Origin: Shigella phage Shfl2
Sequence record: HM035025
DNA: 64,000 bases
Direction: 5' to 3' (one strand)
Of the stretch, positions 29,190 to 39,610 are shown in pieces (the first letter of the stretch is position 1; the number at the start of each line of letters is the position of its first letter). The position numbers and the translations under genes were made by a program. Below the pieces are notes generated by a model that was given only the letters and a program-made list of their open reading frames with translations, made no database searches and was not told where the DNA came from.

Positions 29190-29663
29190 TTATTTGAACG
29201 ATTTAACGTACTGAATAGAACCTTTACTATTCACGAAAGCGATTTTACCATTTTTATTATACATGGTAGCAGTACGCTGATAGCCGTAAGTTTGCTTACC
29301 AGATTGATAACCAACTAATGCAAAATTATCTTCACCCATTTTATTCTGTTTAGCGCGAATGCGTTCATGACCATGTGCCATAAGAACCTTAGCATCACCA
29401 GTTGCAATGGATCGACGAGTTTTTTCATCTTCAACTGTATTAACAAAGTCGTCAAATGAATCAAATTTAGCGTGAGATTTATTATACAGTTTTCCATCTA
29501 CTGCATAATTATATCCCTGTACATCCATCTCAACTTCTGTACCATCATCCAATACAGCAGTGATTTTCTGTCCTTTTTTAAATTTCAAAAGATCAGTAAA
29601 AGATTCAGCAATAATTTGAGAATTAATAGCTGCTTCAGTAATAAATTCTTGATATGTTTTCAT
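29190..29663 (-). CDS. Internal protein with capsid-targeting sequence (ipII locus; 157 aa)
   Basis: N-terminus MKTYQEFITE|AA with the (L/I)xE prohead-protease site; directly downstream of ipIII. Confidence 0.65.
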   Translation of the reverse strand: MKTYQEFITEAAINSQIIAESFTDLLKFKKGQKITAVLDDGTEVEMDVQGYNYAVDGKLYNKSHAKFDSFDDFVNTVEDEKTRRSIATGDAKVLMAHGHERIRAKQNKMGEDNFALVGYQSGKQTYGYQRTATMYNKNGKIAFVNSKGSIQYVKSFK

Positions 29664-29696: not shown

Positions 29697-29776
29697 TAAG
29701 TTTGGGACAATTCGCACGCATGAATTGTCCGTTTCTATATTTATCTATTACCGGGTTCGAACTCGGCTTTATTAAG
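29697..29776. repeat. ~80-bp direct repeat, copy B, with perfect 9-bp hairpin GGACAATTC..GAATTGTCC, between ipIII and the ipII-locus gene
   Basis: Overlaps ipIII stop codon. Confidence 0.6.
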
Positions 29777-30350
29777 AATTACCACGGGCTGCATTAGCAA
29801 CGGCATACGCGTACTGAACATTAGCGTCTTTAAACGTACCTTTAGAGGTATCTATTTCTGCCTTAAAGCCGCCTTTAGTCATAACATCGGCAAATTCTTT
29901 ACGGAAAGCCATTGCATCAAGACCTTTCCATGATGATTTATGCTTGGCGAATTCAAGACCAGCGTAGTTGACAGCCTTAGCTAATTTATTATCAATAACC
30001 CATTTACCAGCTTTAGGCACAAACTTCGGGCCTTTCTGTTTAGAGAACAGTTTTAAATTCCAGCGGCGAAGGTCACTGTCGGCTTTAACAAAAGCTGCGT
30101 CTAAGTTACTAGCAACAACATCTTCAATATGAGCAAATTTAAGTCCGTCAACTTCAATATTTAGATCGGTACGCCAGCGAAGTCCTTCCCAAGCGAAGGC
30201 TTTAAAATCGGAAGCTTTTGTAGCTAAGTATCGTTCAATAGGGGCTGTTTTAGGGTCAAAGCCGTTTCCTCGGTAAGTCCACTCGTCTTTATTAATGCCT
30301 TTGGCCTTTTCAACAGAAGCTTCAGCGATAAATTCTTTATACGTTTTCAT
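29772..30350 (-). CDS. ipIII: Internal protein III
   Basis: 192 aa; N-terminal CTS MKTYKEFIAE; near-identical to T4 IPIII as recalled. Confidence 0.85.
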   Translation of the reverse strand: MKTYKEFIAEASVEKAKGINKDEWTYRGNGFDPKTAPIERYLATKASDFKAFAWEGLRWRTDLNIEVDGLKFAHIEDVVASNLDAAFVKADSDLRRWNLKLFSKQKGPKFVPKAGKWVIDNKLAKAVNYAGLEFAKHKSSWKGLDAMAFRKEFADVMTKGGFKAEIDTSKGTFKDANVQYAYAVANAARGNS

Positions 30351-30387
30351 GTGTTTCCTTTAAATATTTTAATTAGTAACTGTGAAT

Positions 30388-30417
30388 ATACTATCACAGT
30401 TCCAAGAGAAAGTAAAC
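30388..30417 (-). promoter_or_regulatory. Early promoter cassette (-35 GTTTAC, -10 TAGTAT) with AACTGTGA..TCACAGTT stem-loop, upstream of ipIII
   Basis: Between e and ipIII. Confidence 0.55.
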
Positions 30418-34450: not shown

Positions 34451-34582
34451 AGTTTTGTGAAAAAAAATTTTAAAGGTTTTGGGGAATTCTAGGGCAGAGA
34501 GGGGAAATCAAAGGATAGGATAATATATTATAAAGGGTAGAAACTAAATGATGTCTAGAGAGGCCTGGAAAGGCCTAGATAC

Positions 34583-34610
34583 CAAAAATCCCTATCATTT
34601 AGATAGGGAT
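34583..34610 (-). terminator. Rho-independent terminator (AUCCCUAUC-UAAAU-GAUAGGGAU + U-run)
   Basis: Perfect 9-bp stem followed by T-run, 3' of the 34617..35183 gene. Confidence 0.65.
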
Positions 34611-34616
34611 TTAAAA

Positions 34617-35183
34617 TTATTTACCCAGTTTAGTTATTATAGCTTCGGCAGCAGCTTTTAGCTTAGATGCAGTGTTAATACGATTTTTAATTTCAGTATA
34701 CGCATCGCCAAGAACATCAAGGCTATCTGAATAAACACTTACACTATTGCGTTCACTATTTGAAATAGAACCTTTAGTTTTACGATCAAAATCGGTGTAC
34801 ACGTCTTGAAGATCGCGGGCTGCCTTCTTTGCATCATCCAATGCATCAAGAGCTTTATTCAAAGCATTAACATATTTTTTAGTGTCAAACATATTCTTAG
34901 AAATTTTGACGGGTGCGCGTTCAGGAGTAGCTAAGGCAGATTTAGGAAGAACCTGTTTGCCAGATGCCAGTTTCTTAGAAATTTTAAAAAACGCTTTATT
35001 GAAATTATTTTCTTGACTCATCGTAAAAGAACTATTATCAATGTTATACATTTCAATAGCTTTAGCTTTCCACTTAAGAAAATCGCCCCGGTCTTTTGGG
35101 TCCAAGTGGAAGAATACTTTAGTAAGTTCTGCTTCAGATGGTAATTTTGCTGCTTCGGTTAAAAATTCGGCATAGGTTTTCAT
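34617..35183 (-). CDS. Capsid-targeted internal-protein-like protein (188 aa)
   Basis: N-terminus MKTYAEFLTE|AAK with the same CTS/protease-site pattern as ipII/ipIII. Confidence 0.6.
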   Translation of the reverse strand: MKTYAEFLTEAAKLPSEAELTKVFFHLDPKDRGDFLKWKAKAIEMYNIDNSSFTMSQENNFNKAFFKISKKLASGKQVLPKSALATPERAPVKISKNMFDTKKYVNALNKALDALDDAKKAARDLQDVYTDFDRKTKGSISNSERNSVSVYSDSLDVLGDAYTEIKNRINTASKLKAAAEAIITKLGK

Positions 35184-35275
35184 TTAAAATCCTTGAAATA
35201 ATTTATCGGTCGGTTATTAATTATTTATTTATTACTTTGTTATTATCCGTAACAGCATTCTCTATGTGATTCAAA

Positions 35276-35305
35276 CTAAAAAGCCCCAACCTTTCGGTCG
35301 GGGCT
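35276..35305 (-). terminator. Rho-independent terminator (GCCCCGACC-GAAA-GGUUGGGGC + U-run) ending the small-RNA region
   Basis: Strong hairpin with GAAA loop followed by TTTTT on the minus strand. Confidence 0.7.
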
Positions 35306-35610
35306 AAGCCTTGCGGCAACCTTGTCGGGGTTCCACCTGCTAAGGCAAGTGTTTGTACGAAACGCCGGGATTCGAACCCGGTTATTAAGCAGTTGACGCT
35401 ACTCAATATTTTTAAAAGGCCATATCTCGACCATATCCGAACGTTCCGTCAAAAACGCTACTCGGCTTATGGCAAAGATATTTCCTCGAATCGATAATTC
35501 GGTGCGCCGTTTCTGCTGTGATAGTAAAGAATCAGAACACAGTAAAACTGTGGGAGAAACTATACTCCAGGGAACATCAGTCCGACGACTTACCGGTAGC
35601 GACCCGGCTT
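35306..35610 (-). ncRNA. Probable stable small RNA(s) with tRNA-like T-arm and acceptor pairing (resembles the T4 RNA C/D region)
   Basis: No coherent ORF; perfect T-arm CCGGG-TTCGAAT-CCCGG; 8-bp acceptor-like pairing ACGGAACG/CGTTTCGT; GC-rich. Confidence 0.4.
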
Positions 35611-35611
35611 C

Positions 35612-35962
35612 TTAATATTCTTTTAAAGCATCAATATGTTCACGGCGTTTACGCCATAAATCAATTGCTTCATACGCGGATTCAACATTTCGAATTGGAC
35701 GGCATTTATATAAAGATTTGTGATTTTGATATTGTGTAGATAACGGAATTTTATCTAAAAGGTCTTTACGTTCAAAATATTCGTAACCATCTAAACCAAA
35801 TGAACGATTTTTGAGAAATTGCCAATGACCATATTCATTTTCAACATAAATATAATCTGCGTGCTGATAAAGCAAATTAATTATACGTTCAGAAATAACA
35901 GTATCATTATGATTAAAATAGAATGTTAAATCATGAACTACTAAATAAACATTACCTTTCAT
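35612..35962 (-). CDS. Hypothetical protein (~116 aa; ORF track start at 36010 lies inside tRNA-Arg)
   Basis: ATG at 35962 with SD GTGAGGAAAA, just 3' of tRNA-Arg. Confidence 0.5.
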   Translation of the reverse strand: MKGNVYLVVHDLTFYFNHNDTVISERIINLLYQHADYIYVENEYGHWQFLKNRSFGLDGYEYFERKDLLDKIPLSTQYQNHKSLYKCRPIRNVESAYEAIDLWRKRREHIDALKEY

Positions 35963-35980
35963 ATTTTCCTCACTTATAAT

Positions 35981-36057
35981 TGGTCGAGACAGAAGGATTC
36001 TAACCTTCAACCCACGGATTAGAAGTCCGTTGCTCTATACAATTGAGCTATGCCTCG
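35981..36057 (-). tRNA. tRNA-Arg (anticodon UCU), CCA encoded
   Basis: Manual fold: acceptor CGAGGCA/TGTCTCG, anticodon loop CTTCTAA, T-loop GGTTAGAATCC. Confidence 0.8.
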
Positions 36058-36061
36058 TATT

Positions 36062-36136
36062 TGGCGGACGTGATAGGATTCGAACCTATAACCAATCGCT
36101 TAACAGGCGATCGCTCTGCCATTGAGCTACACATCC
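36062..36136 (-). tRNA. tRNA-Asn (anticodon GUU), CCA encoded
   Basis: Manual fold: acceptor GGATGTG/CACGTCC, anticodon stem ATCGC/GCGAT, loop CTGTTAA, T-loop TTCGAAT. Confidence 0.7.
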
Positions 36137-36140
36137 AAAT

Positions 36141-36227
36141 TGGTGGGGAGTGATGGAGTCGAACCACCCGAGTCGCAATGACAATGGATTTACAGTCCAC
36201 ACCGCTACCTCTACGGGATAACTCCCC
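36141..36227 (-). tRNA. tRNA-Tyr (anticodon GUA), class II with long variable arm, CCA encoded
   Basis: Manual fold: acceptor GGGGAGT/ACTCCCC, anticodon loop CTGTAAA, long variable arm resembling bacterial tRNA-Tyr. Confidence 0.65.
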
Positions 36228-36236
36228 AAATTAATT

Positions 36237-36311
36237 TGGTGGCCCTGGGTGGAATTGAACCACCATCTGGCGATTATGAGTCGCTTGCTTGAACCTTCCA
36301 GCTACAGGGCC
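36237..36311 (-). tRNA. tRNA-Ile/Met (anticodon CAU), CCA encoded
   Basis: Manual fold: acceptor GGCCCTG/CAGGGCC, anticodon loop CTCATAA. Confidence 0.75.
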
Positions 36312-36312
36312 T

Positions 36313-36388
36313 TGGTGCTGATTGACGGAATCGAACCGCCGACGTCCTCATTACAAGTGAGGTGCTCTACCTACTGAGCTAAATCAGC
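36313..36388 (-). tRNA. tRNA-Thr (anticodon UGU), CCA encoded
   Basis: Manual fold: acceptor GCTGATT/AATCAGC, anticodon loop CTTGTAA, T-loop GGTTCGATTCC. Confidence 0.8.
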
Positions 36389-36390
36389 AA

Positions 36391-36477
36391 CGGAGGCGAT
36401 AGGATTTGAACCTATGAGTCGCCGGAGCGACTGCCGGTTTTCAAGACCGGTGCATTAAACCACTCTGCCACGCCTCC
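36391..36477 (-). tRNA. tRNA-Ser (anticodon UGA), class II, CCA not encoded
   Basis: Manual fold: acceptor GGAGGCG/CGCCTCC, anticodon loop CTTGAAA, long variable arm. Confidence 0.8.
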
Positions 36478-36479
36478 AG

Positions 36480-36553
36480 TCTCCGTGGCAGGATTTGAAC
36501 CTACGACATTCTGCTCCCAAAGCAGACGCTCTACCAAACTGAGCTACACGGAG
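36480..36553 (-). tRNA. tRNA-Pro (anticodon UGG), CCA not encoded
   Basis: Manual fold: acceptor CTCCGTG/CACGGAG, anticodon loop TTTGGGA. Confidence 0.8.
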
Positions 36554-36563
36554 TAAATTAAAT

Positions 36564-36637
<74 letters not shown>

Positions 36638-36642
36638 AAATT

Positions 36643-36729
36643 TGGTGCGAGAAGTGGGACTCGAACCCACAAGGAAATCATTCCGCAGCATTTTAAGTGC
36701 TGTGCCTTTACCAATTTGGCCATTCTCGC
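36643..36729 (-). tRNA. tRNA-Leu (anticodon UAA), class II, CCA encoded
   Basis: Manual fold: acceptor GCGAGAA/TTCTCGC, anticodon loop CTTAAAA, long variable arm. Confidence 0.8.
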
Positions 36730-36730
36730 G

Positions 36731-36803
36731 CTGGGAATAAAGGACTCGAACCTTTGCATCCTGGAATCAAAATCCAGTGCCTTACCAACTTGGCTAATTC
36801 CCA
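36731..36803 (-). tRNA. tRNA-Gln (anticodon UUG)
   Basis: Manual fold: acceptor TGGGAAT/ATTCCCA, anticodon loop TTTTGAT; first tRNA of the transcript. Confidence 0.8.
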
Positions 36804-36900
36804 ATTATTAACAAAGGCTCTCTAACAAGAACCCTTGATGATAGAGGGTATTAATCAGTGCGGTATGAGTTAATAATAACAAATAATTCTTAAAGCATAT

Positions 36901-37188
36901 TTACCATTTATGATGATACATACTTACGATGCATTCAAGACCCAAAGGATTCTTGAAAATATCATATTCAAGAGGACCTTTTTCTGTTTCAATAAAGAAA
37001 TCAAAATTTACTGTATTAAATTTACGGTCTTCCTTTACTAATTTAACTTGAGAAGATGAACGGTCAATGTAAACCTTTTCAACTTCAAAACATGTTAAAA
37101 TGCCATAATCATCGATCAAGGCTTTAGCTGCTTCTTGATCATATTTATATCCATTTTCAATGGATGATACTTTCGCATAAAGAATCAT
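36901..37188 (-). CDS. Hypothetical protein (95 aa)
   Basis: ORF track; between ipI locus and tRNA cluster. Confidence 0.5.
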   Translation of the reverse strand: MILYAKVSSIENGYKYDQEAAKALIDDYGILTCFEVEKVYIDRSSSQVKLVKEDRKFNTVNFDFFIETEKGPLEYDIFKNPLGLECIVSMYHHKW

Positions 37189-37190
37189 TA

Positions 37191-37601
37191 TCAGCCTCTA
37201 TCAACGATAGTATGAGTATGGGCATTTACGATTTGCCACCAGTCGAAACGATTGGAACCATAATCTGGTTTATTTTCATTTTCTTTAATGATATCACGCA
37301 GCTTATCTTCTGTTTCAGCATACGCAATTAAATCATCATACCCACCGCAAGGATAATAATTATCACCTGCGAATAAAAGAAAATTTACCTTAGATGGATT
37401 TACGTAATAATGGTCTTTAGGATATTTAGTTCCTCTCCAATCAGTTACTTCAACATAACGGTAAGAAAATCCATTTTTACTTTCAATCCAACTCCACGCT
37501 TCAAAAGGAGTATTAAAAACTCTATCAGGTATTAAATTACCTTCAAAATGAGAAGGATTTGCATAATCCCCGGCATAAACATAATATTCGTTAATACTCA
37601 T
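37191..37601 (-). CDS. Hypothetical protein (136 aa, Tyr/Trp-rich)
   Basis: ORF track. Confidence 0.5.
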   Translation of the reverse strand: MSINEYYVYAGDYANPSHFEGNLIPDRVFNTPFEAWSWIESKNGFSYRYVEVTDWRGTKYPKDHYYVNPSKVNFLLFAGDNYYPCGGYDDLIAYAETEDKLRDIIKENENKPDYGSNRFDWWQIVNAHTHTIVDRG

Positions 37602-37787
37602 TTATTCACCTTTAGAAATTTTATCCATAACGATAGCGATTAAACCAATTAAAAATGCTACTACAAGTGAAAACACATTTTCTGTTGTAGTTAATAATCC
37701 GCATATAAATCCAGCAAACATTGAAAAACTAAAAGCGGAAGCAGAAATTGCAATAGCAACATTTCGAATTAATTCACAACGTTTCAT
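37602..37787 (-). CDS. Small membrane protein (61 aa, 2 TM helices)
   Basis: ORF track; hydrophobic throughout. Confidence 0.5.
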   Translation of the reverse strand: MKRCELIRNVAIAISASAFSFSMFAGFICGLLTTTENVFSLVVAFLIGLIAIVMDKISKGE

Positions 37788-37815
37788 TTTATTCTCCTCA
37801 GTAGTTGATAGGGTA

Positions 37816-37845
37816 ATAGTATCACAACTAAAACCCTATGTAAAC
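37816..37845 (-). promoter_or_regulatory. Early promoter cassette (-35 GTTTAC, -10 TACTAT) with ATAGGGT..ACCCTAT stem-loop
   Basis: Member of repeated promoter family; upstream flank nearly identical to the 38146-38175 copy. Confidence 0.55.
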
Positions 37846-37857
37846 AACTTTGTGAAA

Positions 37858-38115
37858 TTATTTTAAATCTTCTAATCGTTTCTTCATCTTAGAACCGTTC
37901 TTAGCGATTTCGCCTGCATCAGAGCATAATGCTAAAAGCGCTTTAACTTTAGTTTGGTCTCCTTTAAAAGATGAAGGATCGACTGCAGCAGCAAGTTCTT
38001 TAATACGAGAAAAAAGACGCTCAGCTTCAGCTAAAGCCATTCCAAGTTTTACTTCCATACCGTGGGAAGATTCAGTGATAGTAGTTTTTGTAGCAAACTC
38101 TTTGAAAGTTTTCAT
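37858..38115 (-). CDS. Internal-protein-like protein with capsid-targeting sequence (ipI locus; 85 aa)
   Basis: N-terminus MKTFKEFATKTTITE|S; adjacent to 57B as ipI is in T4. Confidence 0.6.
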   Translation of the reverse strand: MKTFKEFATKTTITESSHGMEVKLGMALAEAERLFSRIKELAAAVDPSSFKGDQTKVKALLALCSDAGEIAKNGSKMKKRLEDLK

Positions 38116-38145
38116 TTTATTTTCCTAATTAATTTTGATGAGGTA

Positions 38146-38175
38146 ATAGTATCACTACCTCATCAGCATGTAAAC
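38146..38175 (-). promoter_or_regulatory. Early promoter cassette (-35 GTTTAC, -10 TACTAT) with TGATGAGGTA..TACCTCATCA stem-loop
   Basis: Member of repeated promoter family. Confidence 0.55.
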
Positions 38176-38187
38176 AACTTTGTGAAA

Positions 38188-38884
<697 letters not shown>

Positions 38885-38885
<1 letters not shown>

Positions 38886-39610
38886 TATAGTACCTTTAGT
38901 GTATTTTTAATTTTAGAAAAAAGTTCTTCAAGAGAACCATCGTTTGTAATTACTAAATCGCCATCACGAATTGGCAATCCAGCTTCTGTAATATGTGTAT
39001 CATTGGATTTTTGACCAGGACGAACTACATGAATTACTGTAGCACCCATCGCCCTAGCCGCATCCATTTCATGATCTTGACGGGTATCAGGAACGATATA
39101 ATAATCATAACCTGAGTTAAATTTATCAAGATAATCTAAAGCAAATAATTTTACCCAATACATGCGGTCGAAGTTATTAACAATCAAATCCGTACCTAGG
39201 GCTTGCATCAGACGACGGACTGACCATTGATCTTCAATATTATTTATAACGTCAATAATCTTGTTAAATGCTACGGAATTAACTGATTCTTGTCCTTCGT
39301 CATCAAAAACAAACACACCCTTAATTGGGCTTTTACCATTAAGATAGCAAAATGCTTGTTCCATAATCGTGATTACTTCTGATTTAGTCAGATTTAAATT
39401 AGTCTCACGATCATAGTCAATTCCTTCAAACTCTTTACGAGTTAAGCAAGGATAGTCAGTGTTTTCTGCAAATACTCCCCATGCATAAGCCAATGCATCC
39501 TTAATAGGACCAGCAAGTTGGTATTTAACTGCAGAATAATTGCTCATGATAAAATCAGCAGTAGTATCTTTTCCACTACGCTTTACACCACTTAAAAAGA
39601 TTAGTTTCAT
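38885..39610 (-). CDS. 1: Deoxynucleoside monophosphate kinase
   Basis: 241 aa; P-loop GVKRSGKDT; matches T4 gp1. Confidence 0.92.

Follow-up and report, generated by a model that had tools for sequence, protein, structure and literature searches.

The stretch analyzed here, called the window, comprises 64,000 nucleotides of Shigella phage Shfl2 (HM035025), a mosaic Tequatrovirus that shares ~96% identity with vB_EcoM_G50 and its relatives over 24 kb. At 37858..38115 on the minus strand, it carries an ORF of 85 codons plus TAA, which the ORF listing, protein identity, PHROG 3499, and synonymous sites identify as the ip5 coding sequence. The 85-aa product starts with MKTFKEF in the ORF listing and reads MKTFKEFATKTTITESSHGMEVKLGMALAEAERLFSRIKELAAAVDPSSFKGDQTKVKALLALCSDAGEIAKNGSKMKKRLEDLK. 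Gene 3, gene 1 (dNMP kinase), 57A, and 57B lie upstream in the direction of transcription, and three small ORFs followed by ten tRNA genes lie downstream. The T4 gene order is the same, with ipI between 57B and trna.4; therefore, ip5 occupies the ipI position. Thus, the first-pass annotation correctly placed an 85-aa protein with a capsid-targeting sequence (CTS) at the ipI position, as the ORF lies between 57B and the tRNA cluster like T4 ipI. In the window, the ipI locus, bounded by 57B/acb1 and trna.4, holds ip5 as its sole cassette.

The adjacent gene 57B (38188..38646, minus strand) belongs to the Acb1 family of anti-CBASS nucleases (PF23474, E 4e-60) and shares 98.3% DNA identity with T4 57B. 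The ip cassette is therefore directly downstream of another counter-defence gene. On the other side, and also on the minus strand, are trna.4 (37602..37787; 61 aa, a predicted membrane protein; T4 NP_049748, 97.3%; phrog_1692), trna.3 (37191..37601; 136 aa; T4 NP_049747, 98.3%; phrog_1411), and trna.2 (36901..37188; 95 aa; T4 NP_049746, 97.6%; phrog_2023). These three ORFs (36901-37787) had been thought to sit where T4 has other genes. This does not hold, since trna.2, trna.3, and trna.4 are found in T4 in the same place and order with 97.7% DNA identity. Their description as uncharacterised stands, as all three belong to PHROG families of unknown function. The sole functional mention that we found is that Trna.2 was pulled down with the DRT1 defence protein (PMC13275509).

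The protein encoded by the ORF had already been named. It is identical at 85/85 residues to RB15 Ip5 (CAA84462) in the 1994 record, GenBank Z35082, and 100% identical to RB14 Ip5, PST IpV, and Bas37 bas37_0261 each. A tblastn search of 50,697 phage records returned further 100% matches over the full 85 residues in RB32 (Ip5), PP01 (ip5), and GiZh (ipV). Altogether, 176 records carry a full-length Ip5 that is at least 99% identical, and ~267 carry one that is at least 90% identical in the mature part. The match to PHROG 3499 ('internal head protein') spans residues 1-85/85 (E 1e-49). Going by the GenBank record Z35082 (Repoila et al. 1994), which holds the RB15 genes ip5, ip9, ip7, and ip8, and by the later literature that credits the same work, the ip5 gene, its name, the polymorphism of the locus, and the flanking recombination elements have apparently all been known since 1994. 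The gene is also annotated in many genomes.

Comparison of the ip5 alleles from the window, RB15, RB14, Bas37, and PST revealed 12 variable nucleotide sites and identical proteins. All 12 sites are third codon positions and synonymous, which indicates strong purifying selection on ip5. Likewise, Ip5 genes of other T-even phages differ from that of the window at 1 to 3.5% of nucleotides, by synonymous changes only. The 37858-38115 ORF is a real gene under purifying selection.

The first 15 codons (38071..38115, minus strand) encode an IPI-type capsid-targeting propeptide, MKTFKEFATKTTITE, which ends in a gp21 motif of the form I-x-E and was delimited by alignment with the T4 IPI propeptide. Key CTS residues 4 and 7 are reported to be aromatic, the gp21 motif to be L/I-X-E, and propeptides to be 10 to 19 residues long (PMC9026906). 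Ip5 conforms to the pattern MKT(Y/F)xEF through MKTFKEF, with the aromatic residues F4 and F7, and its capsid-targeting sequence aligns with those of IPI, Ip7, Ip8, and Ip9. The first L/I/V-x-E in Ip5 is I13-T14-E15, which is aligned with ITE17-19 of IPI. The PDB chain of IPI*, 2JUB, comprises residues 20-95 of the T4 precursor; hence, gp21 cuts T4 IPI after I17-T18-E19. We infer by analogy that gp21 would cleave Ip5 after E15. The predicted mature protein Ip5* (37861..38070, minus strand) would then have 70 aa, a calculated pI of 9.2, and an all-helical structure.

The AlphaFold2 model, built from an 11-sequence alignment, consists of three helices (residues 4-44, 54-63, and 67-84) and zero strands. 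Its mean pLDDT is 85, with values above 88 for residues 21-85. IPI* has a compact fold in which helices at the N- and C-terminus flank two beta-sheets (PMC3012670); Ip5, as far as its predicted rather than solved structure tells, does not have this alpha/beta fold. Foldseek returned zero matches to the Ip5 model in PDB at E<=0.001, and in BFVD only an Ip5 family member. Thus, the predicted fold gave no functional hint in either collection.

How Ip5 relates to T4 IPI (NP_049749, PDB 2JUB), the inhibitor of the GmrSD of E. coli CT596, is central to the reading of this locus. The two share genomic position, boundary elements, small size, a basic charge (pI 9.0 for T4 IPI and 9.2 for Ip5), and the MKTFKEF...TITE propeptide with its gp21 site. 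Their propeptides differ in length, with 15 residues predicted for Ip5 and 19 for T4 IPI, and the precursor is 10 aa shorter (85 versus 95 aa), as the first-pass annotation had noted. Beyond the propeptide, the likeness ends. BLASTP aligned residues 1-22 only (14/26 identical), which is the propeptide MKTFKEF...TITE, and the mature part is unrelated in sequence to the 76 residues of mature IPI. The Ip5-family profile missed 2JUB among PDB sequences at E<=1, and tblastn of IPI on the 64-kb window matched the CTS/propeptide only. Neither IPI nor Ip6 is present in the 64-kb window. The annotation had taken the protein for a divergent IPI. It was right that this is not T4 IPI, as the alignment run for high identity to T4 IPI came out negative. 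However, the protein is no IPI variant either, since it is 100% identical to Ip5. The negative result against IPI does not imply a new gene; in the alignment to RB-phage internal proteins, RB15 and RB14 Ip5 proved 100% identical.

Could the ORF nevertheless be a fast-evolved IPI allele, an orthologue that has kept its activity against the CT596-type GmrSD? The same locus, the same orientation, and the shared MKTFKEF...TITE propeptide would fit such an origin. Against it, the mature part has no detectable similarity to IPI, and the predicted all-helical fold differs from the two beta-sheets and flanking helices of IPI* (PMC3012670). Furthermore, ip5 and ipI are adjacent and in tandem in RB14 and the RB3 group; they are therefore different genes and not alleles. 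Ip1 is also a specific inhibitor of the CT596 GmrSD, for which other Ips give no cross-protection (PMC12373910). An orthologue of this kind is thus extremely improbable, and we rejected the divergent-IPI hypothesis on the basis of BLASTP, the PDB-sequence profile search, and the predicted fold. To judge from these comparisons, the ORF is Ip5, a distinct named internal protein.

Ip5 belongs to a narrow family. Its homologues form 13 clusters among 5.8 billion proteins, all of them T-even-type phage proteins. No remote homologue was found among 1.84 billion representative proteins, where five representatives were recovered, all from the same phage family, and a Pfam search gave nothing significant. 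Ip5-like proteins of ~50% identity and 93 to 95 aa occur in Mosigvirus, Gaprivervirus, and some Tequatrovirus. They are homologous to Ip5 across the whole mature part, and the motifs KLG.AL.EAE and EIAKNG..(M/L)K.RLE are conserved. However, their C-terminus is longer, and the genes of this branch are found between e and denV, in the other IP locus, which fits an exchange between the two IP loci.

The ip5 gene is bracketed by two similar elements at one of the two IP loci, each with an early promoter and a palindrome. The upstream element runs from the 57B stop to the ip5 ATG (38116..38187, minus strand) and is 98.6% identical to the T4 57B-ipI element. The promoter scan placed in it an early-type promoter on the minus strand, with -35 TTTACA at 38174-38169 and a TG-extended -10 TACTAT at 38151-38146. 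Folding predicts a 13-bp hairpin overlapping the -10 (38136-38165; -17.4 kcal/mol, z -3.7), and the ip5 Shine-Dalgarno sequence AGGA follows at 38123-38126 on the minus strand. The downstream element extends from the ip5 stop to the trna.4 ATG (37788..37857, minus strand) and is 98.6% identical to the T4 ipI-trna.4 element. It holds a second copy of the promoter (37844-37816) and a predicted hairpin overlapping the -10 (37808-37839; -19.3 kcal/mol, z -3.3). No late promoter (TATAAATA) lies directly upstream of ip5; the nearest one on the minus strand is within gene 1 (39241-39248).

These elements are part of a direct repeat of ~94 bp, whose copies are 84% identical and spaced 328 to 330 bp apart. 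The left copy (38110..38203) includes the four final codons of 57B (..DLK-TAA), and the right copy (37782..37873) those of ip5 (..DLK-TAA). On the minus strand, the order is ..D-L-K-TAA, an AT-rich stretch, GTTTACAT, a 17-nt spacer, the TG-extended TACTAT, AGGA, and ATG. The core GTTTACNT-N12-GTGATACTATTA occurs without mismatch at the two repeat sites only in the 64 kb, and with three mismatches ahead of the IPIII-like gene in the second IP locus. Both ip5 (37858-37872) and 57B (38188-38202) end in D-L-K-TAA, encoded by near-identical DNA. As the repeat runs four codons into both genes, the C-terminus of Ip5 may be the outcome of earlier crossovers.

Twelve boundary elements, drawn from the window, T4, RB14, and RB15, could be aligned well. 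In a covariation analysis of the common 13-bp stem, 74% of cells pair, which shuffled alignments equal, and a single pair is changed on both sides. Support for the hairpin therefore comes from single-sequence folding, and we do not propose that the boundary elements share a conserved RNA structure, since pairing is no better than in shuffles. A previous report (PMC2839356) attributes to Repoila 1994 the description of T4 early promoters and AT-rich stem-loops at the two IP loci, with a proposed role in shuffling. The structure bracketing ip5 matches the elements credited there. The promoter-early stem-loop (PeSL) cassettes of RB49/phi1, described in the same report, likewise combine a promoter and a stem-loop flanking small accessory ORFs, and like the ip5 elements they offer homology for cassette exchange. 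The IP-locus elements are, however, analogues and not homologues of PeSL, with T4 early promoters and weaker, AT-richer stems (PMC2839356).

Comparison of the window with T4 delimits the exchanged segment. From 57B across the element to the seventh ip5 codon, the two are nearly identical; the rest of the coding sequence is unalignable, and near-identity resumes at the base after the stop codon, with flanks that are 97 to 100% identical to T4. Relative to T4, the alignment shows a clean cassette swap, in which exactly the coding sequence was exchanged between two boundary-element copies. The RB14 ip5-ipI element (positions 2853-2927 of its record) has a left half of the trna.4 type and a right half of the 57B type, and its palindrome is broken. 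Such a chimera is the expected product of recombination inside the element and looks like its footprint.

Relatives support the statement that the ipI locus is hypervariable among T-even phages. PP01, pSs-1, BP32, and others have the arrangement 57B-ip5-trna.4 with a single cassette, as in the window; the three named phages match it in one piece over 1901 nt at 96.7 to 96.9%. Other loci differ from that of the window by additional cassettes: ip6 in PST, T6, and Bas37, ipI in RB14, and three, namely ip9, ip7, and ip8, in RB15. The ip5 gene is carried by T2 and T6 and is missing from T4. At this locus, Ip5 is about as frequent as IPI, with about 267 versus about 280 phage records.

A role for Ip5 can be outlined from the biology of T4 IPI, IPII, and IPIII. 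The precursor would be recruited by its propeptide to the prohead scaffolding core, and the gp21 protease would cut it after I13-T14-E15. The basic three-helix Ip5* of 70 aa would then be kept in the head and injected with the DNA. In the host cell, by analogy with Ip1, Ip2, Ip3, and Ip6, it would bind and inactivate, stoichiometrically, one specific defence protein. We consider this explanation as a whole, from the ip5 cassette through propeptide-directed packaging, gp21 cleavage, and injection to the inactivation of one host defence protein, very probable. The most likely target, again by analogy, would be a modification-dependent (type IV) nuclease acting on DNA with hmC or glucosyl-hmC. 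The suggestion in the first-pass annotation that this variant may have a different host target is plausible.

The target of Ip5 is none of those tested so far. A previous report has shown that Ip1, Ip2, and Ip3 inhibit one GmrSD variant each (CT596, ECOR21, and ECOR17) without cross-protection, and that ip4-10 gave no reproducible inhibition of active GmrSD variants (PMC12373910). According to the same report, T2 and T6 are restricted by the GmrSD of ECOR21 and ECOR17. Both phages nevertheless carry Ip5. A second line of evidence concerns McrBC, whose inhibitor in Bas37 is the CTS protein bas37_0260, encoded at the ipI locus (HIDEN-SEQ preprint 10.1101/2025.11.20.689424). In the Bas37 genome (KarlGJung, MZ501089), the protein identical to that of the window at 85/85 residues is bas37_0261, and the next cassette, bas37_0260, is 95% identical to PST IpVI, which is Ip6. 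Like Ip5, Ip6 is a cassette of this locus with a CTS, and the two are immediate neighbours in Bas37, PST, and T6; however, Ip6 is an unrelated protein of 77 aa and is absent from the window. A Bas37 mutant that lacks Ip6 but retains Ip5 is McrBC-sensitive (10.1101/2025.11.20.689424); therefore, Ip5 is not the McrBC inhibitor. We accordingly rejected Ip5 (bas37_0261) as the McrBC inhibitor of Bas37 in favor of the neighbouring Ip6 (bas37_0260). The HIDEN-SEQ preprint (10.1101/2025.11.20.689424) mentions no phenotype for bas37_0261.

The negative GmrSD and McrBC data may also be read to mean that Ip5 counters a defence other than type IV restriction, e.g., an early-infection sensor of the abortive-infection or nucleotide-signalling type. 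The neighbouring Acb1 shows that the region is not limited to anti-restriction genes, which would agree with this. There is, however, no positive evidence for it, and four of the four characterised internal proteins act on type IV restriction; thus, we regard a target of this kind as unlikely, though worth keeping in view.

The main rival to the anti-defence mechanism is that Ip5 has a structural function in the head or neutralises charge there. In that case, Ip5 would be mainly a structural or DNA-associated capsid filler that serves head assembly, DNA condensation, or ejection and has no specific host target. Its basic pI of 9.2 would suit such a protein, T4 IPIII mutants show head-assembly defects (PMC9026906), and every published search for an Ip5 target has been negative. 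On the other hand, ip5 is dispensable at the genus level, as T4 does without the gene, and it occupies a swap-in/swap-out cassette locus next to other counter-defence genes. All internal proteins with an assigned function (Ip1, Ip2, Ip3, and Ip6) are specific anti-restriction proteins. Furthermore, the 12 synonymous changes leave every amino acid intact, and a specific binding surface would explain this better than a generic polycation would. Therefore, a filler without a host target appears improbable, and we favor the inactivation of one host defence protein as the function of Ip5.

Four internal proteins have assigned anti-restriction targets, and Ip5, which is among the most widespread cassettes, has resisted the published screens. 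Quite possibly, although we put this forward tentatively, Ip5 neutralises a widespread enterobacterial defence outside GmrSD-CT596, GmrSD-ECOR21, GmrSD-ECOR17, the five other tested GmrSD clusters, and McrBC. Candidates would be a type IV nuclease still uncharacterised, a glycosylase directed against hmC, or a nuclease family that has yet to be defined. If this is true, Ip5 would be a ready-made probe to find that defence system. The question of its target is general to T-even phages and not specific to the window. For the phage itself, the presence of Ip5 without IPI or Ip6 in the 64 kb leads us to expect, from the literature, sensitivity to CT596-type GmrSD. As Ip6 is missing from the window, incompletely glucosylated DNA of the phage may also be McrBC-sensitive. 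The expected sensitivity to GmrSD and McrBC bears on host-range prediction.

Further observations concern the surrounding region. The tRNA cluster (35981-36803, minus strand) comprises ten genes, for Arg, Asn, Tyr, Met/Ile-CAU, Thr, Ser, Pro, Gly, Leu, and Gln, and an Rfam scan of 34500-38700 returned these ten tRNAs and nothing else. RB14 has the same ten tRNAs as the window. T4 has eight tRNAs and an inserted homing endonuclease gene, segB, which is absent from the tRNA cluster of the window. A 132-aa ORF with a TTG start (35612-36010) overlaps the end of tRNA-Arg. The T4 counterpart of 35184-35980, the segment between tRNA-Arg and a 188-aa CTS ORF, encodes the stable RNAs rnaC and rnaD; Rfam gave zero matches in this segment at the gathering threshold.

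The 188-aa ORF (34617-35183, minus strand) starts with MKTYAEFLTE|AAK, which has all the marks of a capsid-targeting sequence, including an IPIII-like L-x-E at residues 8-10. Neither classical IP locus contains this ORF; it is found beyond the tRNA cluster and is preceded by a GC hairpin and a T-run without an IP boundary element. The protein matches PHROG 2280 (unknown function) and is found in 163 phage records at 85% identity or more, named 'hypothetical protein' in all annotated records listed. It is a candidate for an unannotated internal protein at a third locus. The second IP locus contains, at the T4 IPII site, a 157-aa CTS protein (29190-29663, minus strand; PHROG 3155, internal virion protein). 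T4 IPII has 100 aa. The same locus encodes a 192-aa IPIII-like protein (29772-30350, minus strand; PHROG 5341), and the boundary promoter element recurs in diverged form at 30386-30417.
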